64,000 nt of DNA from positions 54,275 to 118,274 of the forward strand of contig CAZICS010000001.1 of the NCBI GenBank assembly GCA_964537835.1. The letters are read 5' to 3'. This DNA comes from an uncultured archaeon. Lineage in GTDB: Archaea; Aenigmatarchaeota; Aenigmatarchaeia; CG10238-14; SCSR01. Below, in pieces: positions 2-45,738 of this stretch (position 1 is its first letter; each line of letters begins with the position of its first letter). The notes beneath the pieces were generated by a model, which saw only the letters and a program-made list of their open reading frames with translations, had not been told where the DNA came from and ran no database searches. The translations under genes and the position numbers were made by a program.

Positions 2-235
2 ATTTCTTCGGAGATACACCTGCTTCAAGATGAACTAGAAAATTTGCTTTCCTTAATAGATAAAAATTCCCTTGAATACCAAAAAGGGAAGATTTCAAGA
101 GAAGTTTTTGAGTCTAATGAAAAAAGGTTGAAAAAGGAGAGTGCTTTAAGGATAAAGAAAATTAATCAGCTAGTTAAAGAAGGATTAGAATTGCTTAAAA
201 AAGCTGAAAAGGAGATTAAAGCTCAAAAAGCTTAG
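2..235 (+). CDS. Small charged protein with a SHOCT-like motif, 5'-truncated by the window edge. The ORF-track TTG at 44 is probably internal.
   Basis: The same frame is open from nt 2 (ISSEIHLLQDELENLLSLIDKNSLEYQKGKISREVFESNEKRLKKE...). Its N-part parallels SSSQIKLLQEELEDVIL of the adjacent paralog at 244..540. GKISREVFESNEKRL resembles the SHOCT consensus (G.IT.EEF...K..LL). Confidence 0.5.
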   Translation: MSSEIHLLQDELENLLSLIDKNSLEYQKGKISREVFESNEKRLKKESALRIKKINQLVKEGLELLKKAEKEIKAQKA

Positions 236-243
236 GTTTTTAT

Positions 244-540
244 ATGGAGGTAATTAAAAAAATCGATTTGAGTTCAATAGAAGAATTCATGAAAGAAATA
301 GTAGCTTCTTCTTCCCAAATAAAATTGCTTCAAGAGGAGCTTGAAGATGTGATATTACATGCAAACGAGAATGAAAAACTTTTTTCTGCTGGAAAAATTT
401 CAAAGGAAGTTTATAAGAAGAATAAAGCAAGGTTAGTAAAGGAGAAGAATCAACTAAGAAAAAAGATAAACGTGGAGTTGAGTAAATTGATAAAAATAAT
501 CAACGAGACAAAAAAATTAATGGAAGCAAACCGAATTTAA
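244..540 (+). CDS. Small K/E-rich protein with a SHOCT-like motif; tandem paralog of 2..235.
   Basis: ATG start, 98 aa. It shares the motif LFSAGKISKEVYKKNKARLVKEKNQLRKKI with 2..235 and with the 537..2477 protein. It overlaps the convergent 537..2477 gene by 4 nt. Confidence 0.55.
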   Translation: MEVIKKIDLSSIEEFMKEIVASSSQIKLLQEELEDVILHANENEKLFSAGKISKEVYKKNKARLVKEKNQLRKKINVELSKLIKIINETKKLMEANRI

Positions 541-2477
541 ACTTTTAATTTTTTAAGTTCGTTCAACAATTTCTTTTTCCTTTCGATTTGGCTTTCTTTA
601 GCTTTTCTCTTAACTTTTTTTCTTCTTTTCTTCTCTTTAGCCTTTCTCTTTCTCTCAATTTTCTTTATCTCTTCCTTTAATTTTTCCTTCAGTTTCTTTT
701 CCTTTTCTTTCTCAGGTACAACCTCCTTAGATTTCTTAACTTCTTCCTTTTTAACTTCCTCCACTTCTTCGGCACTTCTTTCAGTTCTTCCTTTCACTTC
801 TTTAGCAGCTTCTTCCTTGCTCTCTTCAATTGGTTTTTCAGTTCTTTCCTTCAGTTTCTTTTCCTCTTCTTTACTCTCAACTTTTTTCTCAACCTCTTCT
901 TTCTTTTCTTCTTCCTTACTTTCAACCATCTCTTCAACTTTCTTTTCCTCTTCTTTAACTTCCTCTTTTTCTGCACCACCAACAAACTTCTCCAATTTTT
1001 TCCATTCTTCCTTTAACTTTTCCTCTATCTCTTTAAGCTTCTTCTCGTTAGCTCTTTTAACGTTTTCATATTCTTCTTTGCTTATCCTCTTCTCTCTAAA
1101 CTGCTCTTTCAAAGATTCTAGGAATAAGAGGATATTTTCCCTTTCTCTTTTCAGGCTAATTATAGTCTCTGGAAGCTTTGTTTGGAGTAAGGGTAAAACT
1201 TTATCTATTTCATCCAACCTTTTTCTAATTTCAATCAAATCCTCTCTTATAACATCCAAATCTTTCTTACTCACATAACTTTCTAACTTTGTATTTAATG
1301 CATCAACGCTCTTAATCAATTCTTTTAAGCTTTCATCAATCTCATCTTGCTTAGCCTTATAGACCACAAACTCATCCAAACTTTTGCTCAAATCTATGAA
1401 TATCCTTTCTGTTTTAGCTCCAACTCTCTCTATATACCTTACTGCTTCCTTTACCTCATCTACTCTCTTTTGCACATCTCTTGTAACTTTCATCAAGTTT
1501 TCAATACTCCCTATAGATTTAAGAATCTCATAGACTTTGTTTATTTTTTCAGCTAGATCCTGAGACTTCCTCTCGAGCTTTTCAAGAGTTAGTTGATGCT
1601 TTTCTATTATATCGTTAAACTCTCTGAACTTCTTGTTTATTTGCTGAGGTTTTATTTCCGAAATTTCATCCTCGATCTTTTCCATTTTTACCATAGCTTC
1701 TCTCAAGCTCGCGTCTGTTTGGAAAACCATAGACCTCAATTCCCCAATATTCTCAGAAAGCGTTCTTATAGTCTCATCTGTTGCTTGCTTAGCTTCCCTA
1801 ATTGTATCGATCATAAGCTTTAATTTCTCGATTTCTACCATCGCATCGCTTTTTACCCCCTCTTTTTCTTCATAAGTTTCAGTGGGAGCTACAGGTTGAG
1901 TTTGAACTTCATATACAGATTCAGCTTGGGTCCCATAAGGAGACTCGCTTTCTTCTTTTTTCTTCCTCCCAAAAATTCTTTGAAAGAATCCGATTTTAGG
2001 TTTCTCCTCTTTTTTTTCTTCCTTACTCTCAACAGGTTTTGCTTTCTCCTCTTCAATTTTTGCTTGAGCTAGTTCTTCTGCAATCATCTCTCCAACAGTT
2101 TTCTCTTCACTTGCTTCTTCAGATTTTTCCTCCTCTTTAACTTCTTTCTTCTCATCCTTTTTTGTTTCAACTCCTCCCTCTTTTCTAACTTCCTCTCTAC
2201 TTTCAACTTCTTTCTCCTCTTCCTCAACTTTTTGCTTTAATTTAAGCTTACTTCCCCCAATTTTTTTCTCTATCTCTTTCAATCTCTTCAAATACTTTTC
2301 TTTCAACTCTCGATAACTTTTCTCCGAAATATTGGCCTTCCTGTACTCATCTTCAAGATAACCTATCATTTCCTCCAAGTCTCTTTTTTCCTTCATTAGA
2401 TCTTCTTTAACTTCTTTCCTCTTTTTCTTAACTTTCCTCCTTTTTTTTCTCGCTATTTTAACCACCCAACCTCTCAA
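537..2477 (-). CDS. K/E-rich coiled-coil protein with two SHOCT-like motifs. The start is uncertain: the ORF track gives TTG at 2477, and in-frame ATGs lie near 2399 and 2369.
   Basis: Long ORF with extreme Lys/Glu content and KEE low-complexity flanks. The central ~300 aa has heptad-like coiled-coil character. Motifs ANISEKSYRELKEKYLKRL and KRISKEEYENVKRANEKKL match the SHOCT-like pattern of the two small upstream proteins. It is on the same strand as the giant ORF, immediately downstream, and overlaps its stop. Confidence 0.6.
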   Translation of the reverse strand: MRGWVVKIARKKRRKVKKKRKEVKEDLMKEKRDLEEMIGYLEDEYRKANISEKSYRELKEKYLKRLKEIEKKIGGSKLKLKQKVEEEEKEVESREEVRKEGGVETKKDEKKEVKEEEKSEEASEEKTVGEMIAEELAQAKIEEEKAKPVESKEEKKEEKPKIGFFQRIFGRKKKEESESPYGTQAESVYEVQTQPVAPTETYEEKEGVKSDAMVEIEKLKLMIDTIREAKQATDETIRTLSENIGELRSMVFQTDASLREAMVKMEKIEDEISEIKPQQINKKFREFNDIIEKHQLTLEKLERKSQDLAEKINKVYEILKSIGSIENLMKVTRDVQKRVDEVKEAVRYIERVGAKTERIFIDLSKSLDEFVVYKAKQDEIDESLKELIKSVDALNTKLESYVSKKDLDVIREDLIEIRKRLDEIDKVLPLLQTKLPETIISLKRERENILLFLESLKEQFREKRISKEEYENVKRANEKKLKEIEEKLKEEWKKLEKFVGGAEKEEVKEEEKKVEEMVESKEEEKKEEVEKKVESKEEEKKLKERTEKPIEESKEEAAKEVKGRTERSAEEVEEVKKEEVKKSKEVVPEKEKEKKLKEKLKEEIKKIERKRKAKEKKRRKKVKRKAKESQIERKKKLLNELKKLKV

Positions 2478-3560
2478 TCCTCTTTTCTATCGATTCTAAG
2501 TAAGTTTCTGCCATTCTGAATGCACCTGTCTTAATCTTATCCTTAGCTATGTTAAGCTCGATCTCTATATCATAAGTGTCGATCTTCTTTTTCTTCAACT
2601 CCTCTATTTTCTTCTCGAACTCCTCTATTTTCTTATTTAGTTTCACATATTGATTAATTTCATCGTCTGTTAGAGCGAATGGTGAGTGTAGCAATGGCCT
2701 GAAGCTAATGAACCATGGTTTTCCATAGTTATACTCTGGGTTCTGGAACAGTCCAGTTCCTATGGTAAGCTTAGTAACCTTAGAAGCATAGTCAGCACCA
2801 TACTTCGATTTAACCCTTCCTATATCTCCTTCATACTTGGTTCTTAGCTGGATTTCGTTTGCGATATTTGCTCTTATTGCTCCCTTGAAATCTAGTAAAA
2901 CTTGTGAAATTAAGAATAGACCAATTCCCCACTTTCTGAATTCTCTGCAAGCTCTTTCTATGGCTACATAACCTCCCTTCCCTCCATATTTTGGCAACAG
3001 CCTGTGAACCTCATCGTATACTAACAACAGCTTAATTTCTTTAGATTCAGGAGGTCTCATGTCGAATATGGCTTGAATGCTTCTTCTGACAAATCTGTCG
3101 AGCTGCTCTGGTTTGAGTCTGTTCATCACGAACACGGTGATTTCTCCAGGTCTCATGTACTTCTTAATATCTATTGGCATATCTGGGTCCTCAACCAGTA
3201 CTATGTTAGTCTTGAATCCTCTTGCATCAGTTGGTTTCAATCCAAACTTTGGATAGAGGTCAAGCATAGCCTTGAGTCTGCATGGTTTCATGAAACCAGT
3301 CCATTGAGCAGTTGGGTCAAATACTATTACAGGAATCTTTCTCTTTAGCAGTTCTTCTGCACAAACCATTGCAGAGACAGTTTTACCAGATCCAGTACCA
3401 CCCGCAGCTATAGAATGCATTATTAGTTGAGACAAGTCAAGGTAAGCTTTAACATTAGTTTCAGCTATTTTTCCAACCTCTATTGAATTGGGCCCAGGCT
3501 GAGGCAATTTCTTAAATTCTACAGGAGCAATATACCTTGCTTTAGCAGCTTTAGCAGCTC
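2458..3560 (-). other. Cytoplasmic HerA/FtsK-superfamily (DUF87/AAA_10-like) P-loop ATPase domain at the C-terminus of the giant protein.
   Basis: Walker A IAAGGTGSGKT is encoded at about 3381..3419. A D-P-x-x-x-W motif (VIVFDPTAQWTG) follows it. Walker B LLLVYDEVHRLLP is encoded at about 3007..3033. The domain lies right after TM2 and ends in a K/E-rich coiled-coil tail (KLNKKIEEFEKKIEELKKKK). Confidence 0.65.
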
Positions 3561-6500
3561 TATAAGCAGCTATCCATTTCATTCCTATTATAATGGAAGG
3601 AATGCCAACGAACAAGATTATGTAAGTTAACCAATGCATGAAAATAGTTCTTAAGATAAATAGCGGCAATGGCAAAACAGTTACATCAAAATTGTCTGAA
3701 GCAGTTGCATACTTAGTTCCATACCAATAGGTTGCATTCACTTCTATCAGATACTTACCTTCTGGCGTATCCTTTGGAATTTGAATACTCTCTCTATAAG
3801 TTAAAACTGTCCTTACTGCTTTAGTTTCCTTGCTCGTTGTTATTACCTTACTTGGATCGTACAAGGATCTTATGGTGTAGGTTACTGTTATATCCTCAAT
3901 TTTCTCGGTTTGACCCATGTTTATTAGCTTAACTTCAAAAGTTAGATTTTGTCCAGGATTTACAGCTTTTGAAAGTGCAGTTACCTTTACGTCTAGCAAT
4001 GGCTCTAGAACGGATTTAACAGTAATGGTTACCGGTATTCTATCCTCTACATCACCAGCTTTAACTACTATGTCACCAGTATAAATTCCGGGTGCTATGG
4101 TTACTGGAGCATAAGCTCTTATAGCTGTTGTTCCCAAATCTTTTGGACCTACGTTAAACACAGGCTTTTGAATGGTTAGGAGTTGAAATGCAGGACCTTC
4201 TACGGTTATTCTTACGCTGATAGTTTTGTCGAGATTATTGGTTACATGGATGGAGAACAATTTTTCTTCTCCTGGTACTAGAGTAGTTTCTAATAAAGTT
4301 GACTTAATTTCTACAGGAGCTAGAGTAACGTTTGCCCCACCAGGCCCAACTCCAGGAGGTATGGCAGGAATTGCCGGCAAGGTGATGGAGGGTGCAGCAC
4401 CTGCTGCGGGAGGAATTACTGGAGTGGGCGCAGGTGGTAATGTAGGACAGTCGGTTGGGCAATTATTAGTCGATTCTCCATATTCACTTTCACATTCCCC
4501 GTTTCCACAAATAAATTCAGCTATTATGTAGGCACCAGTTAAATCAGTTAAATTGGCTTTTACATAGAATGCTGATAAGTTAACTGAGTTATCACTGTTA
4601 TCTCTGTTCGGATTTGTAATTCTTACCCATAGGTTGTTTTGAGCGGTTGTTATCTTTGAAGTCCAATTTCCTCCATACTTGTAAATTCCTATCCTAGTTG
4701 GGTCATAAATAGGAACATTGCACCCACCTTCAACACAATCTGAAAAGTTTATGTATAAAATTGAGTAAGATGGTTTGAGAATCGTGTAAACATAAATTGA
4801 TTTAATTGCACTACTAGTCATTCTTACTGGAGGAATCTCTCCAAATATTATCGGGTTGAAGTAGTTTTGAGTTAAGCTCAAATTGTACATTTCTATTCTA
4901 TGAGTAAATCCAAATTCTTTAAGCTGGATTTTTAAATCATATGATTTTGCATCTATAGTTTCATTGTAATAACCAGTAGTTAGGTTTGGACCAAAATCGA
5001 ACCTAGTTATGTTTGTACCCACGTCAAAGAATGTGAAATTAAGATTGATTGGAGGTTCGCCCAAAAGTTCAACATTCTTTGCATACCCACTAAATATAAC
5101 TGTCGGGTAAATCTCAAAAGTTTTAGTTTCAAGAGCACAATTTCCTGAAAGGTCACAAGCAGTTACATTTATAGTATAATTGCCCAATTGAGAGGTATTC
5201 GAGAAGTTGAATTCGTATAAGTAAGTATCATCGGCTTTTGAAACAAAAGTTAAAGTAATTTTTTCAGTTGAATTGTCAGGGTATTTAATAGTTCCGCTCA
5301 CATTCTTTATTCCACCTGCTTCTACTATACTCGCCCTTATGTTTACCGTAGAGTTTGCAGGTATTCTTACAGGTATTATTAAGGTTATGAGGGGTGGTAC
5401 GTTGTCCTTATAAACTATTGAATCCTCTTCTACATCACTCCTAACCAATACCCTTGTTCCGTTATAAGTAGCAGTTATATTCAAGCTATAAACTCTAGCT
5501 ATAGCTAGGTCAGGAGCTATAAATCTAACTCTCCACAATTTTTCTGTACTGTTGTAGAAAGCTAGGCTAATGTTTGCGAATTTTGAAATAGTGGAATTGA
5601 ATATAGAAACGTTAAAGCTTACGTTTTGAGTTACATAACTTGAGTTTGCACTTATGTTTACCTTTGCTTCAACAGTGTCGTTTGGAAGTATTCCTGTTAA
5701 GGGTTGGACTTTTGTCGGATAAACTATTTTAACCTTGTAGACACTAACAAACATGCTTACAAAAGTTGTTTGCATTTTAACAGAAGCATTTTCTCTTAAT
5801 GCACCTGTAATATTGCTTATTATAGTTCCTGTATAGTTTGTATCATAGGGTATATCTGGAGACGAATAGTTTATATAAACCGTCTTTTGACCAGCATATG
5901 GTAAAGTAATTTCACTTTCACTCAATCTTAAGTAAGATTTAATCGTTCCATTAACTACCAAACTCAAGTTTATCTCAGCATTTCCTGTATTTATGATAGT
6001 TAAACTTCCAAAGTAGCCAGTATCATTTTGTAAAACACTTCTATGAATTTCTTTTTCCACATGTTCCCAAGAGATGTTAACAGGGACGCTTATGTAAATT
6101 GGTAGGTAAGCTGCTTTACCATTCCAACTTATTTCTATACTTCCATTCCAGGTCCCTGTTTGATAGTTAGTTGGAACTTTAATGCTTACATTAACCTTTC
6201 TCGTCTCCCCAATCGGAATCAAAGTGAAATTACTTGGTTTAAACGAAACGTTAAAGTCTTCACATACTTTCCCACTCTTACACGTTATGCTTACATTTGT
6301 TACATTCTCATTTCCTATAGATTTCAAGGTAAAGCTTGCATTTCCTATACTTCCACCAGGAATTATCTTGGTTATATTATCTTCTAAAACTCTAAGCTTT
6401 GGATTTGGCGTAACATTTATTAAGATGCTCTTCCTGCTTGAATTATAGGTATTGTTAAGATTTCTCCATCTTGCAGTCAGGTTTATGTAGTAAATTCCTG

Positions 6501-9500
6501 CTTTAGTACCGTTTGGGATTATTATTTTGGTTAGGTTAGATTTAGAAGTCCACTTAAGAATAGTACCAAATTTGAAGAAGTCCGGTGTAGCACTTACATT
6601 GCTAGAAGAATTTATGGTTAGGTTAGAATCGAAAGCTCTTGAACCGCCAGTATTGTTTAGAGTAATATTAATCGTGAAGTTCTGACCATACTCGATTGTT
6701 ATATCATCTGCCGTTATTACTGAAACATTCGGCAATATTTCTAGCCAGGTTGTTGCCGAACCTTCTACAGCTGTTGGTGAAGTACAAGCTTGTAAGGAAC
6801 GAGTATCGTTTGCACATATTCTAATCAAGTGAATACCTTCCATGAGACTTATATAAGTTGTGTTATAAATATCTCCTGCAAACTTCTCCATGAATTGAAT
6901 GTAGGTGGAACCGTTCGGTAGGGTTACATTTATCCATGCTTTATCAACAGCAAAGTTATCTGTTATCTTTGCTTGAACTGTCACATTTTCATAACCAATT
7001 TCGAATACAAGCGGTTTGATCAAAACATCAGTAATAATTGGTGGGATGTCCGTTACATTTAAGGTAATGTTTGTAATTCTTTCAGGTGGATTTGCAAAAG
7101 TTACGTTTCTTATTACTATTTTTACTGTATAAATTCCCTCTATAGCATTTGCAGGAACACTGTAATCTACGGTAACATTTCTTGAAATCTGTTTCTCTAG
7201 ATCAAATGCTCTAGTTTGAGGAACTCCTGCAGGATAAGCTGAAATAAAGATACTACCATTTCCTTGCTTTAGAATTTCGAACGGTATCTTAACATTTCCT
7301 ATGTTCTTTACAGTTATATTTCCTATAGTACCACTTGTATTCAAAGGCAAGAGAACTGTTCCAAATGTTTCTGGCTCTCTTAGCCAAGAAGTATTCAAAG
7401 GTATGCTTATATTCAAAAGCATTTCATCAAATCCAGCATTGCTTGTACTTGCTCTTATCTTAGTCCAATATATGCCTGGAGATTGACCAGCAGGTATGGT
7501 TATGTAAATATGGGAGAGCATGCTTTCTCCAGCGAGTAATAAGCCAGTTTCGCTTGGATTAATAGTCAAAACACATAGAGGACAATCTATTGCAAGATTT
7601 CCTCCTACTGCACTCAACTCAACATCCCTAAGTTCATCATTTCCAGAGGCTATGGTTGTTACATTCCCAACATAAGTTGTTGCATCATGAGGTGCCGTCT
7701 TGTTTATACTCTTTGGAGTAATTTCTACCACTGGGTTTGAAGAGACAGTTATTGAAGTTAAGTTTGAAGCATAATCTATTGAAAGATCAGGATTTCTCCA
7801 AGTTGAGATAACATAAGTTCTTATTAGCTGGGGTGCTGTTTTAGCTGGTACGGTAACTCTAAAGGTCCAATTACAAGATTGGCCAGCGTAAAGAGTTCCA
7901 CATTCTTTTCTAGTTTCGTTATAAACCAGAGAACCAATAGGTTCTTCTTGATGAGTTAGATTAACCGAATAAGCAGTAGCTGGTCCAAGGTTAATGAACG
8001 TAACGTTTACTTCAAACGTAAAGCTTTGGGTTTGTGTTATACCATAGGCTACTATTTCTTGAGGTTCTTGTTTAACTAAGCCAGAAATCTTACCCCAAAC
8101 GCTTAAAGTACCTACAAAAGTACTGTTGATGTTATATTCTGGTCCAGCATCCTTTGCGTATACCGTAACATTATAGGTTCCTCCTATTGGTGGAGTATAA
8201 ATTGCTCTATAGGTTGCTTTGAAGAAACCAAAGCTTTCTTCGGGTACAGTAATGTTAGACATCGGAAGTATTACTGGTGTGCCATTTGGCATGGTTATAT
8301 TTGCCCATGCGGAGACTACCCGATAATTATCTATTATAGTTGCAGTAATGTTTGTTGAGTTTAAGTTTGCTTCTATGCTTGAATTGGGTAAGAGCGAGGT
8401 ATTATAAATCTTGGGAGGTTCTATATCTTTAACCCAAATAGTTTCTGTAGCTTCTTTTATATTTGCTGAATAGTATTGGGTAACATTATCACCTATCTTG
8501 CATTTGAATGTAATATTTCCTTTTTGTTCTGGAGTAAAGTTATAGCTTGCATAACCAGTGACATTAGTCTGATAACTCCCATTGAATATGTATTCAGTAG
8601 AAGGCTCCCACTTGTAAGAGAAGTTGACAGTATAATCAGAAATTCCAGCCTTGGACACGCTATCTTCAACTTTACAGGTTGGTGCAAAAGTATTTGGATA
8701 GGGAACTATTCCTGTAGGCGAAATCCAAATTACATCTGCTAAGCTTGTTATGATTATGCTTACATTATCTATTCCATCATCGTAGTAGGGTAGGGTTGCG
8801 ACTGCCATTATTTGATGCGGTCCTGTCTTTTGTTCAGCAACTATTGATTGAGCCAAGAAAGTTTCCATTCCTTCAGCAATCTGTGCAGTCTCGTTATACC
8901 ACTTAACACTTGGATTTAACTCTGCAAAACTTTCTCCATTCTCGCTAGTACCATTTGCCTTCAGAGGAATTGATTGTGATTTAGAGTAATAACTTCCATT
9001 TACAGGCTCTATTATGGTCAAATTGAGAATTCCTTTTATTGTTATGATAGTTGTGTTTGTATCTGAATCCTCATTTTGTGGTCGAGTTGCATTTATGTAA
9101 AATGTATACGGGCCTGGTATCCATGTGTCAGCTACATTAAAGTTGATTAAAGAGCACCAACCGCTTGAATTTGTTAAGCAGCTATCCAAGAAATGAGTTG
9201 AATTATAGAAGCTAACGTTTGCATTATCCGCATCCCCTATTCCTGCATCTTTAACATGAACGCTTATATTAGTTGCATGAGGACTGAATGTATCATTTCT
9301 ATAAATCCAAGCATATTGGCTCACTATTTTGTCGATTATTAGCGGTCTTGATAACCTAATCCAAGTTTCTATCTGCGAAATTGAAGTATTATAATAAAGA
9401 GTTGAATTATCCTCTATTGCACAAGTTAAATTGTACCATCCAGCAGCTTCTCCGCTTGTATACCAAGTAAGACTTGCATATCCATCAGCATTTGTTAATC

Positions 9501-12500
9501 TTATTCCTAATAGTTCACCATTCTTTAGGAATTTAACCGAATAATTAGCTATAGATTGAGTAGTGTTACTATCTCTTACATGACAGGTAATTGTTATTGG
9601 CACACCTGCTGAAGAACTTGTTCCATTGGATGGAGAAATAGAATCTAATTCGCTCCATCCATATATGTAAACTAAGCTACTGTTGCTATTAGAGTCATAA
9701 TATTCCCTTGAAGCGTTCGCATAAATTATTTCGCTACCAAGCTTGTAATTCTCTGGGACATCCCATAGAGTATTATAACCACTTGCTAAGAGATGCCAAC
9801 TAGAATTATACCAGTTTATGGTTGCATCTGCTATTTGCTGATTACAATCATCGCTTACGCTGGCATTCAAAGTAGTTTTAATCCCCCTATTGATTATAGT
9901 TCCTGTTAATGGATGAATAAGTGAAACGTTCAATTGACCATAAACTGTTAAAGTAACGTTTGATGTGTTAACAATCTTATAACAGCTAAATCCATCTTTT
10001 TCTACAGTTCCACCAATCCAGTATTGTTTTCCAGCTATAGTATCGCAAGTTGGGTCATGGTAAGCGTTACAATGACCGTTCAAGGAAGTACAGTTATATG
10101 CTAGCGTATAAGTTGATCCATCTTCAGTAACCCAAATGGTTCCGTTGGCTCCGGTAACATAAGCTCCATTATCTGAATCATAAATTATAAATTCTAGGAA
10201 TGCCTGATTATTCCCTATCCTTCTTACACTTGAATTGCTGGCTGGATTTATGCTCAAGCTTACATCATCTCTTTCCAAAGTAATATTTTTAGAAATTGTT
10301 TCGTCAGTGAAGTTGAAAGGATCTGTTGTATTGAATTTGTAGTAGAGATAAGGAGATTGTCTAGCATAATCTTCGCATGTAAATCTATGTTTAAACGTAA
10401 CGTCTACGCTTATTCCTTGAACGCTCTTCGACTCAACCAAATACCAAGTTATATTGTCATAGCTCTTCCATAAGCTTAGATTATTTATATTTAGGTCGGC
10501 ATCTGTGAAAGTAACTGTAAAGGTATAGAGTTCTCCCCAACCTCCGAATGAGTGGTCAACTCTTGGGTTGCTTAAAGAAGGTTTATCTCCAAGGAAGAAT
10601 GCCTTTACCTTTAGTGTGGAGTTGCTAGCATAATAATCTTTGCTTACATCCATACTAACATTATACCATCCTTTTGGCTTTCCTGCTGTGCTTTTCGTAC
10701 AATTATACCATCCTTGTCCTTCATCCCAGCCATCATTATCTGCTATAGTGCACTGATAAGGAGAACCCACTTGAGGTATGAACGTATAAACAACAGTTGC
10801 ACCTTCAACAGCTTCACATTCGTCATGTAAGCTTCCATTTATGGATACAAGATCACCTCTTAAGTATCCTTCCCCATCTGGATAGACGATTGAAGGTAGC
10901 AATAGGGATTTAATTGTTAGAGTATAATTGGTTGAGTTCTTATCCTTATAACAAACATCATTATAAACTCCGCCAAACCACTTTTGAACACCTGTTTTGA
11001 AGTCACATCTTGTTTGCCCAGGAGGTAACTCTAGCGGGAATTTATAAATCAAGTTACTTTCTAGGTCTGTTTCTGTAATCTTTTGGCTAGCAAAAATATT
11101 ACCATCCTTAGTTACCCAAAAGCTTCCATTTACTCCATAACCTGCAAGATTTCCTGAGTCCGCATCTATAACCTTTAGAGTTAAGTTTATGTAAGCACTT
11201 CCATTTCTCCAAACCCATTCGTTATCCCCGCTAACCAATTGCAAACTTACATCATCCTTTTCTAAGGTGAAATTCTTTGGTTCGATAGTAGTTTCGTACA
11301 ATTCTCCATAAAGCAATGGACTGTTAGGATCATCTGTTGCATTAAACTTGAATTCCCAAATATGTGGATAAGGATCGTCTCTGCTTGCTTCACAGCTCCC
11401 TCTTGTCCAGCTTAGGGTTACAGTTTTGTTTATAACTGGAGAATCTAAATTCGTTTTATTTGCTTGAATCCAACTAGTTGAACCATACCTTCTTACGTAT
11501 AAAGTTAAATTGACAAAATCATAATCCTCATCTGTTACTGTAACATTGAAGTAGAACCTTTCTCCCCATCCTCCAACCTCACTACCTTGAGCAGATATTA
11601 CAGAGAGATTAGATAAAACTGGTTTTGTTTCTATGAAGAATTCTTTTGTTCTTGTTATAGACCTATTGATGAAGTATGGACCTGAAACGTTTATCCTTAC
11701 ATCGTACCATCTTGCCTTCATGTCAAAAGTATTTCTGTTACATCTATAAACTCCTGTTGCAGGGTTTGTTATTTCTGTACAACTATAACTTTTACCCGTC
11801 TCATTATGGACAGCTTCCATGGTTATTATAGCTGGGTCTATCTCACCACCACAGTCATCCTTTATTGCTACCTCTTCAGCAATTCCAGGATAGCCTGCAT
11901 CCAAAGTTACATTTTCTTCTGAGCGTAAGACTGTATCATCTGTATAATCTCCTTGTCTATATCCACTTGGATAATAGACGAAATCTCCATATATTTCTAA
12001 AGTGTAGTTTGTTGTATTTTGTTGAATAAAGCAAGCATCAGTCACACTCCCTTTCCATTTCTGCAACCCAGGATAATAATTACAGTCTGGATTGAAGTAA
12101 TAGGTTACGTATCCAGAAGAGTTTGTTTTATTAGTTTGCGCTAGGAAAGTGCTTCCATCTTTGGTTACATAGAAGGTTACTGTAGCATTATAAGCTGGAA
12201 CATTTCTATCTGTGTCATTAACTCCTAGTACAAGCAAAATAGTATTTCCTATATCGCTATCAGACCTATTAACCTTAGAATTATTCCCTGAAATGTAATA
12301 GATTACTACATCATCTTTTATTATGCTTGGAGCGGGTATGTTGCTAGTATTAAATATGTTTGTTCCATCATCGATTTGCCATTTGAAGTAAACCAAGCTC
12401 GTATTTATTTCACTACATTCAAAATTACTAACGTTTACTTCACATGTTCCTTTTCCATTGTAAACAGTGTCATTACCTCTATAAACCCAACCCTTTGAGG

Positions 12501-15500
12501 TATAGGTAAACAATTTGCAAGTCACGTTATCGAATTGAGCATCATCTATATCTACTCTAAATGTAAAGGTTTCTCCCCATCCTCCAACTTCAGGATAAAC
12601 GCTTTCATTTTCTGCTATTGGTGGGGTGTTATTTAGATAAATCCAATCTTCGAAGATAGTCGAGTTCGAATAGTAATAATCTCTCGATGAGTTAACTCTT
12701 ATATCATAATAACCTCCTTTATGGAAGCTTGTATTCCAGGTTGAATAGTACAATCCATTACCTTTCTCGTTCGCTGGATAAGGTTCAATTAGTCTAATTT
12801 CTCCTATTGAAGAAATTTCTTCGAACGAAACATTTGCTGAACTAACATTTTCTCCGCACTCTCCTTGAATTAAACCAGTAACATTAATAACATTTCCAAC
12901 AGGGATTACACTATCTTCTTCAGGTTCAACTAAGAAATTCATCAATTGCCCTATTAAAGTAATTTGTTGATTTCCTGTGGTTGCTGTAAAGTAACAAGCA
13001 TCTTCTAGGTCAATCTTCCAGTACTGAATACCAACATCAAAAGTACAATTTGGATCAAAGGTATAATTAAAGTAGCCGTTAGTTTGAGTTACTAATTTCT
13101 TGTCAAACAAGAAGTTCAAGCCATCTGTTGTTATATAAATACTTCCGTTTACGTCAGCAAAGTCTATTTCCGTTCCTTTTATAGTGTCATAGAACTTAGC
13201 AGCAAACCAAGCGCTATCATCACCAGGTCTTGTAATTTGAGTTTTCGACCAGTCTACATCAGCTACATCCGCTTGGTCTTTTGTAATTGTTATAGAACTT
13301 GATTTTTCATCCGTATAGTTGAAGTTATCGCTTGCGTTTATTTTATACATCTTACTTCCTATATCGCTATAAGTTCTGTTGCAAGTAAAAGTAATCGGAT
13401 AGAATTCTATATTAGTACAATTTCCAACAGCTGGAACACAAACTTTTTGATCAGCTAATTCCCATTCTCCAGTTAGATTAAGCCAGAAGTAAACGTTTAT
13501 AGTAGAACCTAGTTGAGCATTGTAATCTTCATCTTCAACGCTGAATGGGAAGTGCCAATTATCTCCCCATCCTGCCGAACCAGTATCTGTATAAACAGTT
13601 CCTAAGGTAATAACAGGCTTTGAAGCAAGATAGTATGAGTTTATAGTCAAATTAGTTTCACTTGCATTATAATACTCTTTTTCAGCTTTGATTGAAATGT
13701 TTGTATAACCATAGAGCCATGTTGGTTCTGGTTGAGCAGTAGTATCTGCCCTGAAAACACACTTATAAATTCCAGGAGATTCTTCAACTATCTGACCTGG
13801 TGGACTTTGATCTTGCACGCAATCTTTCTCTGAAGGACTTGCACCCAATTGTTGAGATTTAATGGTGACGCTTGCATTACTTACACCTCCGCATTCGTCA
13901 GTTACATTAACTCTTACAGGTACGTCTTCTATACCCTTAAGGAATAGTTTAGCGTTTAATGGCTCCAACAATTCTATTTGGAGAGGAAGTGTAGTTATGT
14001 TTATTGAGAATTCACTTGAATTAGAAGCCTTGTAAGCTTCTGAATACAAAACACCAGCTTTCCATTTCTGTGGTCCAACTTCATAGCTACAGTCAGGATC
14101 AAATTCTCCAGCAGAAGTATTTATAAAGCCGCTTGAGAAAATAGCAGGTACTTCTGAATAAGTTGAACCATCTTTAGTTACCCATATTCTTACATTAGAG
14201 CTTAAAATACCAGCTATGACATCGATTCCTTTATCTATATCGTAAGTTTTAACGCTTAGCTTCTGATAACTATCGTCAGCTCTGTAAACGCTTGTTTCAT
14301 TACCTTCTGCATGAATTAGAAGCAAATCATCTTTCCCTATAACAAAACTTCCATTTCCTACCTCAAAAGTATTGTTAACAAAATCTTTAGTCGTATTCCC
14401 AAATACATCTTTTACTTCACTTACATTAAACTTGAAAACATGTGTTCCTAATCCAGGATTACTGTAAGTTGGCCATCCTTCTATTTTAAATGTAACTGTT
14501 ACATTAACACCTTGAACGCTTGAATTTGTCATCGGGATTGGCAATGGTTGAGCCCAATCTCCTTCCACTAAGCTAGAGTTAACCCAGAGTTTAACTTCTA
14601 AGATATCATCATCCTCATCTGTAACATTAACCCTAAAGTACCAAGTTTCTCCCCAACCACCATCTCCAACATTCTGTTGCGAGTCATAGCTTATCACATA
14701 AAAGTCTGTAGTTAGGATTGGCTTAGTTTCAACCCAATACCCTTTTTCCCAAATTTGGAATTGGTCTATGGTTTCATTAGAGTTGTAATATTCTTTGCTT
14801 ACATTAAACCTTACATCCCAACCCTTGGCAGAAAAGCTTGAAGTATTGATTGTACAATTGTAATAACCGCTTCCTTCATTCAATACAGGGTTACAATATT
14901 TCACATCATTTCCTTGAATCGAAGAGAAGTTAACGCTTGCATCCTGAACAAAAACATTGCAGTCATCAACAACATAACCTCTTAGCAATACATTTTGTCC
15001 ATCTGGATAATTTCCTCTTAAGTATTTCCCTCCTCTAGGTTGAGTTATAACAGGTTTTAGGTCTCCAATAATTGTAAGTGTAGAGTCACTTATGTTTTTG
15101 TCTATGTAGCAAGCATCCGTTATTCCAGCTTTCCAATTTTGTAAACCTACCGAATAACTGCAATTTGGATCGAAATAATAGGTTGCATTCCCTAAGCTAT
15201 CCGTTTGATTTATTATATCTAGCTGATAATTAGAACCATCATGAGTAACCCAGAAGCTTACATCAACACCTTCAACTGTAGAATTCTTCTCCACATCGAA
15301 AATGTTAACTGAAAGTAATACAGCACCAATACTCCTATTAACTATTGAGTTATTACCTTGGATTAGAGCTATAACTGCTTCGCTTTCTTTCAACTTAGGT
15401 GCATTGATTGGAGTTGTATTGTAATAATTAGCCGGCTCCCCATTCTTTATCTCCCACTTAAACCAATTATCATTACCTATATCGCTGCAAGTGAAACCTT

Positions 15501-18500
15501 GGTAAGGAACCCAGCAAGTTCCTTTAGTAGGTGTACCAGGGGTTCCTGTTATGGTATAACTTCCTACTTTCTCCCAAGTTATTCCATCATCCTTGCTTAT
15601 GTATAAATTACAAGTTATTGTATCTCCTTCTTGGTCATAGATATCGATCGTAAAGTTAAAGTAGCTTGACCATCCTTTATACTCATCAAAGCTTAATTCT
15701 TCCCAGTCACCTAATACATAATTATAAACATAAACGCTAACATTCTCGCTTGTAGCGTTCACATTCTCTAGCCAGAACCAATTGTTATAGAGTGAAGAAT
15801 TAAAGTTGTAGTACTCCTTGCTTGCATTCAACCTAATACTCCAATATCCTTCTTTCTTAGCAGTAGAATCCCAAGTACAATTATACCATCCATCATACTC
15901 ATTATAAGCTGGAGTACAACCCTCCCAATTACCCAAAGGACTTCTTAACTCAATACTAACGCTAGCATTAGCTATTAAACCTTCATTCAAACAATCACTA
16001 GTAGTATTAAACCTAATCAAAATCTGATCAGTAACATTGAATACAGAATTATAAACAGGTACCAACAAATTATTCTTCAATTGGCCACGAATGGTTATCG
16101 ATTGAACTGTGTATCCGCTGATTGCACTAGAAGTATAACATTCATCACCCACATCCATTCTCCAATTTTGTATACCTACTGAGTAACTGCAATTTGGATT
16201 GAAATTATAGCTTAGATAACCTGAACTATCAGTAGTTAAAGCGATAGGCGGACCATAGTTCGCATTATCATAGGTTATTCTAATTGTACCATCAACTCCA
16301 CTTCCAACATATTCTCCTCTATCCCTATCATAAACTTGGGCTTGCAGTAAAACTGTTTCATCTTCTCTGTCAACTTCGCTTGGAGTTGTTGTTGCATAAA
16401 GAACGACATCATCTTTAATTATTTGTTGTTGTTGAGTTGTTGAAACTGTGTAATTCCAATAGTCTGTTGCGGTAACATTGAAAATTCTAGTTCCCATATC
16501 AGAGCAAGTGAATGTATTCTTGTAAGTGATGGTTTTAGTAATCTTACAATCAGGAGCAGAACAAATGCTTGAGTTTAACAATTTCCAGCCATTTGTAGTA
16601 TTACTCCATAAGCTAACGTTAAGTTTTTCAAAACTAAATGTTCCTTGATCTTCATCATACAGATCTATATCGAATATCCAAGTTTCTCCCCAGCCATAAG
16701 GATTAACAGAACTTCCAAAAGAATCTTGGGTTGTTATAGTTAAAGCACTTATAGTTGGTTGAGTAACCAAAACAAATGCATTCTCTTTAAGCAACACATC
16801 TGAACTATTGTAATAAGTCTTAGAAGCATTTATGGTAGCGTTATAATATCCTAAAGTCCAGGTTGAAGGATCGAAGGAATAAGTTACATAACCGCTCGCA
16901 TTGGTAAAGGCTTGAGCCGAATGAGTAGTTGCACCCTGTTTGGCTTTAAGGTCAACTAAAGCTGATGCTACTCCACCACAATCATCGTAAACATAACCTA
17001 GATAATCTACAGTATCTATACCCTTCCTATAGCTTTCACCATTTGGTTTGATTAAGCTAACTTCCAACGGTGTTGTTATCAAGGTTAAGTTCCATGCTGG
17101 GTTTGCGGGAGTGCTCCAAGTTGGCTTATAGCAGCTTTGTCCAAAGAAGACCTTCCATTTTTGAGGTCCTATATCATACAAACATCTATCTGAAGATGGG
17201 AAGTTATCAGTAATATATCCATTTGGTTCTATCGTATTTAGTTCTAAATCTTTCCTATAATTACTTCCATCATAAGTAACCCAGAATTGACCTAAATCAT
17301 TGTAAGCAACAGGGTTACCCGTATCTAAATCTTGAATTTGTACTTTCAGCGGAACCCTTTCACCATTGGTAACATTACTCCTATTAAGGATTGCATTATT
17401 CCCGAAAATCAAACTTATGCTTATGTCATCCCTTTCCAAACTAAAGCTTCCTACGGAAGATTCAGCATAATCCTTCTGAGAGCTAGCTGGAGTAACAGTC
17501 GAATAATCATCAGTACCATTAAAGAAGAATTCATGCGTAGCGTTAGTAAGTAAATCATCGCATACAAATGATGTAGTGAATTCTATTATTGCACTTTCAA
17601 CACCAGCAGCTTTGCTTTTTCCGGTAATCGGTGGTTTCACGCTCCAGCTTCCACCTCCAGGTCTCTCGTAGAACCATACTTGAACTTGATCTAAGTCTTC
17701 ATCCGTAACATTAACTCTGAAAGTCCAAGTCTCCCCCCATCCACCTATATTCCCTCCTTGTTCTGACTCGACGCTTGTTGATATTAATTGAATTGTTGGT
17801 AAAGTTTCTATCCAGAATGCATTTGTTTCTGTATAATCTACCAAATTATAGAATTGCTTCTCAGCATAAACTCTAATATCATAATACCGAGGCGACTTTC
17901 CGCTTGAATTGAAGGTTGTATTGTAATAGCCTAAGCTTTCTTGAACATGTTGCAAGTAGAAGATATCGTTAGTGTAAGTACTCTTAACTGAAATATTTAG
18001 GTAGTCTGGGTCGATTAAATTGTTACAATCCTCGCTTATGTTAAACCTTATGGAAACATTTTCTCCACGATAAAATTCTTCTGCATTCAATGGTTGAATT
18101 ACTTGAGTTGACAAGCTTCCTTTAATAGTTAGATTCCATGTGTCAGAGTATACGTCAAAATAACATGTTTGACCTTCTATAAAGGTTGTCCAGTTTTGAT
18201 ACCCAACTTGATAAGTACAATCTGGAGAGAAATCATAAGCTGCATAGCCTAAGCTCGTATTAACTTCAGCTGCTGTCAAATAATTACTTCCATCGTAAGT
18301 TATGTTGAACTTAACTGGTGTATTATCTGCAACCGCACTTCCTTTATCCTGGTCATACACATAAACCTTTAGGGTTAAAGTTCCAGAATTTCTATTAACT
18401 TCTTTCCCATCTCCGCTTACAATACTTATTTGTAAGGTATCTTTGGTTATGTTTGGTCCTTGTGAAGTTTCGGTATTAACTGTATTATACCCATCATCTA

Positions 18501-21500
18501 AAACAAAATAGTAATAATTATCAGTTCCTATGTCAGAGCAGGTAAAGTTAATTAGCCATGAACATAGACCATGGCCTCCGGTTATTGTAATCGGGGTTTG
18601 AGATTCAAAATAGCTACCTCCATCTGTCGAAATGTAAAGGGTACAAGTGACATCATCGTTGTCAGGATCATCGATTGAAATCGAATAGTTATAAGTTGTG
18701 CCCCACCCTCCTTCATTTGGAGAAACAGGTATTATCGTGTAAGTGGGTGGAGCATTTTGTAAATAGAACCAGTTGTCATACCAAGTTGAGTTTTTATGGT
18801 AATAGTTTCTAGTTGCATTCATCCTTATATCCCAATATCCTGGTGTCTTTAGAGTAGAATCCCAAGTACAGTTGTAATAACCATTTCCTAAATCTGTAAC
18901 AGGATAGCATTCTTCAATAACATCCAAAGGAGATCTCAGATTTATGTTAACTGTAGTCTCATTTAACAAACCTTCTTGGGAGCAATCTGAATAAACACTT
19001 CCATTTATCGGAATGAGAGTTGTTGTCTGGAAGGTTGAGTCATATTCTGGATAAGTAAGGTTGACTTTAAGTTGTCCATAAATGGTAAAGAGAACAGAAT
19101 CACTTTCTGCATCTTTGTAACAGGATTCTCCTATGGTTGCGATTCTCCAATATTGGGATCCTACAGTAAAGCTACAATTTGGGTCAAAGTAAAATCTAAC
19201 TTTGGAGTCTGCTTCAGTATAGTTAGTAAGCCAGATTAAGTATTCACTTCCGTTCCAAGTAACCTTAAGTTTGGTTTCGACACCAGAACCAACTGAAGTA
19301 TCCCTATCCAAATCGATAAGTGTTGCGACGAACTTAGCTTTATCAGTAAACTCCCTATCAACTTCGCTATCGGACAAAGCTGGTTCAGCAATTATCTGGA
19401 CATCGTCTTTTGCGATAGTAATTGTATCAGAAGTATTGTAACTATATCCATAAAAGTCTGTTGCTGTCAAATTCCATTCTCTTGTTCCTACATCTTGACA
19501 TGCAAAATCATCTTCTTGGATAAAAGTATAGCTGCACGGACTTGCTGTGCAAATCGTTGAATTCAATAATTTCCATCCAGAAGCCAAGTTAACCCATAAA
19601 CTAACATTTACTTCATCTTCTCTAGGAATAATCGCTAAATCATCATCTGTTAGAGTAAAACTAAATTGCCAGGTTTCTCCCCATCCTCCAGTTGTTGAAC
19701 CTTCTTCTGAAACAGCTGAGTAAGAGGTTATTTGTGGTTTTGTAACTAAAACAAAAGCATTCTCTTCTGTCCAAACAGAACTTGAATTGTAGTAAATTTT
19801 GCTTCCGTTGAAAGTAACATTCCAATAACCTAGATAGCTATTAGGCCATCCTGCTGTGTCAGTAGCAAGGATTGTGCAGGAATAATACCCATTCCCTTCA
19901 TCTGTTACAGGAGTGCATTCTATGTCTGTAGTTCCTTTGACTATGTGAAATTCTCCATTTCCATTCGGGATCAATCCACAATCATCCTCTAACCAACCCC
20001 TGAGCAGAATGTCATCTTCTCCTCTAACAAAGGATGTTCCTCCTGTAGGTTCTGAAACATAAGCTTCTAAAGCTTGAGTTATAATTGTAAAGGAGTAATT
20101 TGTTGAATTAACATCTTTATACCAATCATTCCCTACAGTCCCAACTTTCCATTTCTGGGGACCTACTTGATAGCTACAGTCTGGATAGAACTGATAGCTA
20201 ACATTTCCCAATTCGTTACCAGTTCCTGTTGTAAAGTAGCTAGGTGGGGTTGGATGAGCAACAAAATTAGTGTTATTCGTAGTAATGTAAAATCTAACCT
20301 TAGCTCCTCCTACAGCAGCGTTTTTATCCGTATCTATAACTTTAACCTTGAAGGTAACGTTTTGTAAAGGTTCTCCTAAAGAAGCACTTCTGTTTACAAC
20401 ACTATTATTCCCTTCCAATAGTTGGATTGCTATATCATCTTTCTCTATCGTAAATGTAACTATTGAAGTATTGGCAACATTACCATCATCATCACTTACG
20501 TTAAAGAAGAGTTCCCAATCTCCTATATAGCTTCCCGTCGCCCATGTTTTTGAAAATTGGACTTTCACATTGGTTCCGCTTACACTAGAATTACACCCAT
20601 GCAAAATCCAAGCAGTATCACCAACTCTTCTGTAGTAAGAGCAAACCGTTAGTGTATCATAGTCATAATCTGTGGCATTAACCACGAACCACCAATTCTC
20701 ACCCCAACCTCCTAAATTATTGGTCCCCTCATTAATTTCTTGCTCGCTTATCGCATCTTCTCCAACTAACAAAGGAATAGTTTCAACCCAGAAAGCTTGG
20801 TATTTTGTTGTTGAATTATCATTATAATCATCTTTCTGCAAGAAGGAGGTTACATCATACCATTGAGTTGGCAGGGAAGAAGTATTAAACGTACAACTGT
20901 AGTAGCCAGGCTCTTCGAAGTTTATAGGTTCGCAAACAAATTCTTCCCCTGTTTGTTGGGATTTGTAAGTGAAATTCATTTTAGAAAAGCCGGTTAAATT
21001 CACAGAGCAATCATCGTAAGTGTGAATTCTTATGGTTATATTATCTCCTCTCAAATATTTTTCGCTGCTTGGCTGAAGAATATCATTTAAAATACTTCCA
21101 ACTACATTCACCGCAAACTCACTACTATTAACATCTTGGTAACAAGCATCTGTAATTCCTGCTTTCCAGTATTGTTGTCCAACTGAATAACTGCAATTTG
21201 GATTGAAATAGTAGCTTGAATTTCCCTGAGAATCTGTTTGGTTTAATAAGTCAAACTGATAGTTAAGATTATCGTGAGTTACCCAGAAGCTAACATTAAT
21301 GTTTTGGGCGTATGCATTTTTTTCAACATCGAATACATTAACTCCTAGCCTTATTGTGTTTCCTAATTCTACATCACTCCTATTAACATAACTGTTGTTT
21401 CCTTCTATCAAGCTTATTCTTGCTAAGGATTCTCTTAGTTCTGGAAGTTGAATTGGTGTTGTGTTATAGTAATTAGAAGGCTCACCATTTTTAATTTCCC

Positions 21501-45342: not shown

Positions 45343-45738
45343 ATGATGTTGAAAGGTTTTTTGAACAAGAAAACTCAGGAAGAAAGTGTCGAAAATATAA
45401 TTAAGAGGCTTGACATGCAATACGCTCATCTAGCTTTAGAGTTTGAAAAAATTAAGCTCTTGAACGAAAAAATCGAAAAATTGAATTCAAAGATTAGAGA
45501 GATTGAGGAAATGATTTCTCGTGGTATCAAGTTTCAGTCGAGAAGTGTGTCGACAAGAACAAAAGAAGCAATTAAACTAATCCTTAAAAAATATGGAGAG
45601 TTGACTTCTGAGCAACTAAGCAAAATACTTAAACTGTCGAGAACGAGGTGTAACGAGTACCTGAAAGAGATGGAAGAAGAGGGAATAGCCAAGTCAAGAA
45701 TTTTCTGTCGAAAAAAGCTATATTCTCTTCGACAGTAA
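45343..45738 (+). CDS. Small coiled-coil plus C-terminal winged-helix DNA-binding protein, a putative transcriptional regulator.
   Basis: 131 aa. The N-terminal half is coiled-coil (LEFEKIKLLNEKIEKLNSKIREIEEMI). The C-terminus GELTSEQLSKILKLSRTRCNEYLKEMEEEGIAKS is HTH/wHTH-like. It is divergently transcribed from the giant gene. Confidence 0.6.
   Translation: MMLKGFLNKKTQEESVENIIKRLDMQYAHLALEFEKIKLLNEKIEKLNSKIREIEEMISRGIKFQSRSVSTRTKEAIKLILKKYGELTSEQLSKILKLSRTRCNEYLKEMEEEGIAKSRIFCRKKLYSLRQ

Follow-up and report, generated by a model that had tools for sequence, protein, structure and literature searches.

The Aenigmatarchaeota belong to the DPANN archaea, which are considered to live attached to the cells of a host; the giant proteins on their surface rank among the foremost candidates for that contact. 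Which proteins, then, could serve such a giant on the cytoplasmic side of the membrane? The question is raised by a stretch of 64,000 nucleotides from an uncultured aenigmatarchaeon (hereafter the window: contig CAZICS010000001.1 of GenBank assembly GCA_964537835.1, positions 54,275 to 118,274), at the left end of which lies the gene of a giant protein (2458..45168, minus strand; an open reading frame (ORF) of 14,236 amino acids (aa)). It is followed on the same strand by the gene of a K/E-rich coiled-coil protein, here called cc (537..2477, minus strand), which measures 646 aa as a maximal ORF and 642 aa if read from the GTG at 2465, and by two small ORFs of the plus strand: S1 (2..235), of which the window holds the last 77 codons and the stop, and S2 (244..540), of 98 aa. 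The start of S1 lies 54 nt before the window, and its full product of 95 aa was read from L001, a near-identical ENA metagenome contig (110,890 bp) to which the window matches. An earlier reading of the DNA letters (the original prediction) had picked out these three ORFs beside the giant gene, and all are present as it described them; it was silent on the strand of S1 and S2, which are opposite to the giant and cc genes and convergent with them, and on the 4-nt overlap of the S2 stop with the cc stop (TTAA, 537..540). We favour, at slightly better than an even chance, the view that cc, S1 and S2 would work in the cytoplasm close to the membrane, as partners dedicated to the ATPase tail of the giant.

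A turn motif and its hairpin module

The three proteins are linked by a short motif, whose core, [GAKR][KNR]IS[KRE][EK].[YF], has exactly four matches among the ORFs of the window (six-frame ORFs of at least 60 aa, 23,809 aa in total): once in each small ORF (GKISREVF at 86..109 in S1, GKISKEVY at 391..414 in S2) and twice in cc, at residues 48 and 463. The longer pattern put forward in the original prediction literally matches S2 only, while this shorter core is present in all three proteins. Charged residues make up 38-53% of cc, S1 and S2, and the proteins gather numerous weak Pfam coiled-coil matches, as would be expected if the motif had arisen by chance from low-complexity, K/E-rich coiled coil and if neither small ORF were a genuine gene. 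Composition-preserving shuffles of the three proteins nevertheless yield 0.002 matches per set, and none of 20,000 sets reaches the observed pattern; orthologues with conserved turn residues are found in 18 loci and 44 protein clusters, and the structure of S2 is predicted with high confidence. Residues G47, I49 and S50 of the turn are nearly invariant among 14 small-protein orthologues, whereas in the second cc copy of the motif I, E, Y, K, N and L are each kept in 70-81 of 83 sequences, the Y and N being nearly invariant in both cc copies. Since the shuffles fail to reproduce the pattern and the turn residues are conserved in orthologues, the motif is not a product of K/E low complexity, and that explanation, already refuted by the conservation data, retains practically no probability.

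In structural terms, the motif marks the turn of a helical hairpin. The AlphaFold2 (AF2) model of cc, built from 83 sequences, contains two such hairpins at confidence (pLDDT) values above 90: helix 2-46, loop KANIS and helix 52-94, within which the conserved N-module spans residues 27-75 (2253..2399, minus strand), and helix 437-461, loop EKRIS and helix 467-509, corresponding to the C-module of residues 437-500 (978..1169, minus strand; family consensus GKISKxEYE). Between them lies a conserved central helical domain of ~230 aa (residues 210-436; 1170..1850, minus strand), predicted, also above 90, as a bundle of long helices (210-434). The acidic linkers are modelled as disordered, and the protein closes with a basic helix (residues 590-646; 540..710, minus strand; net charge +21) that ends in a conserved ...LLNELKKLKV. 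S2 is predicted to be a single hairpin (pLDDT 90.4), with helix 9-48, loop 49-53 (AGKIS) and helix 54-97, and ends in a conserved [NY][KR]I. In the cc modules and in S2 alike, the turn motif thus sits in a 5-residue hairpin loop.

The two modules of cc are homologous (hhalign 98.4%, E 4e-15), and the paralogy of S1 and S2, which the original prediction had claimed, is borne out by 45% identity (E 6e-14). The small family, in turn, aligns to the cc modules in register, with hhalign E-values of 4.8e-5 (C-module) and 1.8e-4, while reversed, column-shuffled and other-helix controls give E-values of at least 0.0027, at least 50-fold worse. Because the in-register alignment is far better than these controls, S1 and S2 are probably free-standing copies of the cc hairpin module.

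Both families extend well beyond the window. A word-indexed search with cc returned 87 homologue clusters (E 1e-131 to 1e-13) without credible Pfam domain, and an exhaustive profile search with the C-module returned 243 representative clusters; among the best 150 of these, the central domain is present as well in nearly all. The family is unannotated, and its named members occur only in Aenigmatarchaeota. Its members are built alike: the N-terminal module, single or doubled, is followed by the core and the C-module, and in many cases a weak half-module closes the chain; core and C-module together form a block of ~294 aa of constant length (294-304 aa) in 21 of 26 relatives checked. The profile search with the small family gave 44 clusters, all of 79-124 aa, Aenigmatarchaeota where named, and no borderline outsiders; their locus tags adjoin those of cc genes, and they are without credible Pfam domain, one of them having a single precomputed match to PF08649 DASH_Dad1.

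Searches of Pfam, NCBIfam, PADLOC and PHROGs with the three proteins gave nothing above threshold and no defence-system or phage family, a DruC match of cc (1e-4) being taken as coiled-coil noise. Profile searches of the PDB with the cc family, the C-module and the small family retrieved only designed coiled coils, the Rad50-binding helix of Mre11 and similar chains; Foldseek found nothing below E 0.3 for the AF2 models of cc and S2, and the central domain of cc has no Pfam, PDB or Foldseek match. Within this background, the Pfam CdvA coiled-coil family (PF18822) is matched by six of 29 N-modules (best E 0.0029), and the CdvA filament of S. islandicus is among the top Foldseek matches, which evokes a general cytoskeletal or division protein, a CdvA-like or ESCRT-related filament former whose adjacency to the giant gene would be incidental. 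All of these matches are sub-threshold, however (Foldseek E 1.2, TM-score about 0.1-0.3), and the close tie of cc to the giant gene, the two being strictly adjacent with overlapping start and stop codons as described below, argues for a dedicated role, making a general cytoskeletal function very unlikely.

A second conserved island is found in the first linker of cc, at residues ~125-140 (about 2058..2105, minus strand; TVGEMIAEELAQAK; family consensus EIxExTPEVIEKLAxQ), for which AF2 proposes a short helix (132-143) at low confidence (block pLDDT 37-54).

Likeness to the SHOCT domain

The turn of the hairpin recalls SHOCT (PF09851), and the three proteins had been labelled as SHOCT-motif proteins in the original prediction, which presented SHOCT as an established oligomerisation motif. 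SHOCT has been described as a domain of ~30 residues, with two short helices, a strongly conserved loop Gly and a conserved Glu, that lies within 50 residues of the C-terminus in 89% of its members; the experiments reported in the same paper did not support oligomerisation (PMC3581485), and to that extent the earlier wording was overstated. If the domain were genuine, the three proteins would be adaptors that oligomerise through SHOCT, and the turn itself, G-K-I-S-K-E-x-Y, does fit the SHOCT pattern G-x-I-T-x-E-E-F.

The profile searches give no such match for the proteins of the window: at E<=10, PF09851 is matched neither by cc, S1 and S2, whole or as excised motif segments, nor by any of the 14 small-protein orthologues. 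Among the cc relatives, SHOCT is matched by six of 31 C-module segments (best E 0.0014) and one of 29 N-modules, all below its gathering score of 27 bits, SHOCT_2 by five of 31 C-modules, and GvpG by five of 31 C-modules and 13 of 29 N-modules, all below curated cut-offs. As a positive control, 14 SHOCT domains were taken from annotated plasmid proteins, and all 14 pass 27 bits, the best at ~43 bits; 13 of the 14 also match GvpG, so that the GvpG and SHOCT matches of the modules amount to one common signal. This signal is direction-specific, in that SHOCT, SHOCT_2 and GvpG are not among the 25 most frequently matched families listed for reversed C-module segments. The reversed segments do, however, give unrelated matches at E ~0.002, and the SHOCT-like E-values are therefore at noise level for such sequences.

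Profile-profile comparison leads to a similar result. Against the 14 SHOCT domains, hhalign aligns the C-module in the expected register with a probability of 12% (E 0.0024), the N-module with 2%, and the small proteins with 1% and out of register; reversed controls give E 0.2-0.5, and the best of 20 column-shuffled controls reaches E 0.0062, close to the observed value. A tblastn search of 7.3 Gb of plasmids with the real C-module found no match, while a SHOCT probe finds 296 records. A hand-filled consensus did match SHOCT (E 2e-4) and was discarded, the filled positions being the analyst's choice.

The modules and the SHOCT/SHOCT_2/GvpG C-terminal region have in common the succession helix-short loop-helix, the turn G-x-I-[ST]-x-E-x-[FY] and a conserved Lys one turn on. 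They differ in helix length (~40 residues in the module, ~12 in SHOCT) and in the spacing after the aromatic residue, since at +7 cc has an invariant Asn and SHOCT has Leu-Leu. The motif is, in addition, not C-terminal, lying at residues 48 and 463 of the 646 of cc and mid-protein in S1 and S2, and the loop Gly, nearly invariant in the small proteins, is present in 45 of 83 C-modules and in neither cc copy of the window. The likeness to SHOCT thus appears direction-specific but marginal, so that membership of the family is not established, and we regard a genuine SHOCT domain as improbable.

Gene order and the giant's ATPase tail

If cc, S1 and S2 are partners of the giant protein, their genes should travel with it. 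Loci related to the window (cited by L numbers) were gathered by pattern and tblastn scans with the cc core, seven from GTDB species genomes and 15 from JGI metagenomes, some locus pairs being the same sequence from two collections, and their ORFs were searched with hidden Markov models (HMMs). In all 18 loci that have upstream DNA, a giant ORF with a HerA tail (132-1365 bits) directly precedes cc; in each of them the giant ORF runs off the locus end, and it is the C-terminus that is matched. These loci come from independent metagenome-assembled genomes and metagenomes, with cc identities of 54-79%, and NCBI locus tags confirm the adjacency (QXU74_01060/01065, QXR09_01980/01975, VJ343_02860/02855). 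The S1-S2 pair follows cc in 18 of the 21 loci that have downstream DNA (19 of 22 with the window), S1 orthologues being found in 18 loci and always adjoining S2. The co-conservation with the giant gene on which the original prediction depended is therefore strongly supported, for cc and, with the exceptions discussed below, for the small pair.

The junction of the giant and cc genes (2458..2477, minus strand) is itself conserved. The giant stop lies at 2458..2460, and cc may start at the TTG at 2477 or the GTG at 2465; the 20-nt overlap noted in the original prediction holds for the longest ORF, from the TTG, while the conserved start at the GTG gives 8 nt. In L004 and L022, the closest relatives, the TTG frame is closed by a stop, and the common start is the GTG with its 8-nt overlap, whereas eight more distant loci have an ATGA overlap, in which the ATG of cc sits on the TGA of the giant. 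The recurrence of a stop/start overlap across loci argues for co-translation of the giant protein and cc.

The orientation of the small genes is less constant. S1-S2 are convergent with cc in L004, L005, L008, L021, L024 and the window's contig, and co-directional in L007, L009, L010, L014-L018, L020, L023 and L025. In the convergent form the S2 and cc stops share TTAA, so that the transcripts must overlap, and the same tight junction is found in L004, L008 and L021. Between cc and the gene that comes next, the S1-S2 cassette stands in one orientation or the other according to lineage, which amounts to a precise inversion (window 2..540 compared with L007:11250-12004). An invertible switch was considered on account of a 21-nt, 81% inverted repeat on either side of the cassette in L001 (9684-9704/10291-10311) and rejected, as 54 such pairs occur in 900 AT-rich bases.

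The gene that comes next encodes a multi-pass membrane protein of ~157 aa with an HExxH motif (IYIHEISHL), located just outside the window start (L001:9153-9626, minus strand; orthologues include L007:12012-12494 and L009:12111-12593), with a sub-threshold match to Pfam Peptidase_M50B (E 1.6e-4). It follows S1/S2 in almost every locus, always on the giant/cc strand whatever the orientation of S1-S2. The order of the module is giant gene, cc, S1 and S2 in either orientation, and the small HExxH membrane protein. This last protein could count as a fifth component and might be an intramembrane protease with one of the anchors of the giant as its substrate.

The tail of the giant protein, with which we propose that these companions associate, carries a HerA/DUF87-type P-loop ATPase domain (2797..3513, minus strand; Pfam PF01935, E 3e-11; PADLOC HerA, 1e-12), its NCBIfam matches to CedD/HerA being sub-threshold. 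After the ATPase, the last 70 residues (2461..2670, minus strand) form a helical hairpin, ALTDDEINQYVKLNKK…DTYDIEIELNIAKDKIKTGAFRMAETYLESIEKRIERLGG, that is near-identical in 13 loci and more conserved than neighbouring sequence, and that is a likely candidate for a docking element for partners. A fifth copy of the module at this place was considered and rejected, since the module HMMs score ~0-4 bits there.

Several other features of the locus were recorded. Judged by eye from the sequence alone, the start of the giant (44974..45168, minus strand) has a winged-helix-like segment and then a transmembrane (TM) segment, in the manner of a transcription factor tethered to the membrane, and its residues ~236-400 (about 43970..44460, minus strand) resemble an insertion of Hint/intein type (…TREGWKYF…VTEGHKLYA…VPNHVILV…SSN). 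Divergent from the giant gene, 45343..45738 (plus strand) encodes a possible locus regulator of 131 aa, in which a coiled coil is combined with a winged-helix-like segment at the C-terminus. A signalling cluster (a CheX/CheC-like protein of 207 aa; a response regulator; a protein of 112 aa; a PAS histidine kinase) lies beside the module in L001:4828-9163, L008:13159-16805, L011:7654-11966 and L020:8686-9677. Finally, the length of cc varies even between close relatives: it has 646 aa in the window and 650 aa in L001 (10294-12246), a 12-nt difference inside the gene, and in L004 the gene is in two pieces (9354-9818 and 10025-11197); the K/E-rich linkers seem liable to changes of length or to misassembly.

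Proposed membrane proximity and function, and known systems

No TM segment was found in cc, S1 or S2, the maximum Kyte-Doolittle hydropathy over 19 residues being below 0.7. The first linker of cc, acidic and predicted to be disordered, contains an amphipathic motif at residues 159-174 (1956..2003, minus strand), KPKIGFFQRIFGRKKK, to which KK-G-F-F-x-[RK]-L-F-G-[GK]-KK corresponds in position in many relatives. A close counterpart is the membrane-targeting sequence of E. coli MinD, KGFLKRLFGG (PMC5471200): the short, basic-flanked stretch of the window, KIGFFQRIFGR, has a hydrophobic moment of 0.55 against 0.45 for MinD, and the family form, K-x-G-F-F-x-R-[LI]-F-G-[GK]-K-K, matches the MinD sequence at up to eight of ten positions, as in KSGFFSRLFGG. 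The strict pattern G[FLIVMT][FL]..[LIMF]F occurs in 61 of 172 cc family representatives, compared with 0.18 expected from shuffles. The comparison has its limits, in that the MinD sequence is C-terminal whereas the cc motif is internal, and cc is not a ParA/MinD ATPase. The termini of cc are strongly basic, with a net charge of +11 in residues 1-26 and +21 in the final 57 residues. Taken together, the lack of a hydrophobic segment, the MinD-like motif and the basic termini point to a cytoplasmic protein held at the membrane.

Basic ends could also serve another purpose. In a different scheme, cc would be a nucleic-acid-handling partner whose termini bind DNA moved by the HerA/FtsK-type ATPase, along the lines of the DNA-uptake idea advanced for the SPEARE giants of Nanohaloarchaeota. 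Besides the charge of the termini, such a role is suggested by the best NCBIfam match of the giant tail, the DNA-translocating ATPase CedD, followed by others such as TraD, TraB and FtsK, and by the conserved, nucleic-acid-enzyme-like cytoplasmic part of the SPEARE proteins, to which similar sequences are reported in Aenigmarchaeota (PMC6642349). These NCBIfam matches are far under their cut-offs, however, no DNA-binding domain was detected, acidic lipids would be bound equally well by basic tails, and nothing in the present data ties S1 or S2 to DNA, so that DNA handling is judged unlikely.

We return, then, to cc, S1 and S2 as membrane-proximal partners of the ATPase tail, a dedicated cytoplasmic partnership having been suggested already in the original prediction. 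In the mechanism that we propose, cc would be made together with the giant protein by way of the stop/start overlap, and would be kept against the membrane, on its inner side, by its amphipathic motif and basic ends; soluble and elongated, it could act there as a scaffold beside a ring of ATPase tails. S1 and S2 would bind cc, or each other, by hairpin-to-hairpin packing, and through this packing the base of the giant in the cytoplasm could be assembled or regulated. The lack of TM segments, the translational coupling and the membrane-targeting-like motif all fit the proposal and make it plausible. The motif, the paralogy, the repeat of the module in cc, the predicted hairpins, the synteny and the stop/start overlap are observed; membrane binding, all of the protein contacts and any effect on the ATPase are inferred.

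Several observations weigh against this proposal. Synteny alone cannot separate a partner of the ATPase from a partner of another part of the giant or from a member of a common regulon, and the pattern-based scans reach fairly close relatives only, their counts being uninformative on distant lineages. The homology of the small proteins to the cc modules is moderately supported only (hhalign probability 48-68%), and the MinD-like motif is internal, occurs in its strict form in about a third of members and lies in a region of low-confidence prediction. In addition, in one subclade, L011-L013 keep the giant and a two-module cc, but S1/S2 are replaced by one convergent coiled-coil ORF of 114-117 aa (L011:7226-7570, L012:7053-7406 and L013:4837-5181, minus strand), the S pair therefore not being obligatory for cc. 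The replacement ORFs are alike among themselves (E about 1e-43 to 1e-47); that they are divergent S homologues was considered and rejected (hmmsearch E >0.09 for the whole sequence; hhalign 0.1%).

Giant surface proteins whose conserved cytoplasmic end carries a P-loop were already known from DPANN archaea, and the contribution of the present analysis concerns what stands beside them. Two unannotated families have been defined next to the giant gene, cc (243 representative clusters) and S1/S2 (44 clusters), together with the hairpin module that they share and a likely membrane-targeting motif, and the tempting but unsupported SHOCT label has been corrected; the literature search found no description of either family, of the module or of the MinD-like motif. 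cc, S1 and S2 are small, expressible proteins, and offer an entry to the cytoplasmic side of the machine.

Besides SHOCT and MinD, the locus bears comparison with two known systems. The first is that of the WXG100/Esx and Lap pairs, which are likewise tandem paralogous hairpins of ~100 aa with a conserved motif in the turn, their genes adjoining that of a HerA/FtsK-superfamily membrane ATPase. By analogy, S1 and S2 could be Esx/WXG100-like substrates or targeting adaptors that the HerA/FtsK-type motor of the giant would export or recognise, in an archaeal counterpart of type VII secretion used on the host cell. The single hairpins of ~95-100 aa with a conserved turn predicted by AF2, the position of the tandem pair within 2 kb of a membrane-anchored ATPase of this superfamily, the conserved C-terminal tripeptide of S2 and the presence of LXG-Lap hairpin complexes among the generic Foldseek matches would all agree with such a role. 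On the other hand, no sequence similarity is apparent: WXG100 is not among the 25 most frequently matched of 64 Pfam families, no Esx chain appears in the PDB profile search, the Foldseek matches are generic (all E >0.3), and the turn is GKIS instead of WxG. The motor, too, is built differently, with a single HerA-type domain in place of the multi-domain EssC/EccC, and the pair is absent from L011-L013. We consider an Esx-like role to be improbable. The same low standing is given to a broader speculation by analogy, in which the five-gene module would be an undescribed archaeal contact-dependent apparatus: a SPEARE-like giant with its motor, a membrane-tethered cc, Esx-like S1/S2 as substrate or adaptor of the motor, and the intramembrane-protease-like HExxH protein releasing an end of the giant, for example its N-terminal winged helix, as a signal.

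The second system, that of the SPEARE giants, concerns the giant gene beside which cc, S1 and S2 stand. Hairpin and coiled-coil companion genes go unmentioned in the sections of the SPEARE paper that were consulted, and the likeness of the giant of the window to them is one by description (PMC6642349). Besides DUF87/HerA, the giant tail (2461..4299, minus strand) gives weak matches to ResIII (E 0.017) and DEAD (E 0.003), the kind of signal for which the conserved part of the SPEARE giants inside the cell was named 'type III restriction enzyme-like' by Hamm et al. (2019; PMC6642349); the giant of the window may belong to the SPEARE group. The SPEARE giants resemble the protein described here in being mostly extracytoplasmic, in having a TM segment close to the C-terminus, and in the conservation of a P-loop region on the cytoplasmic side (PMC6642349).

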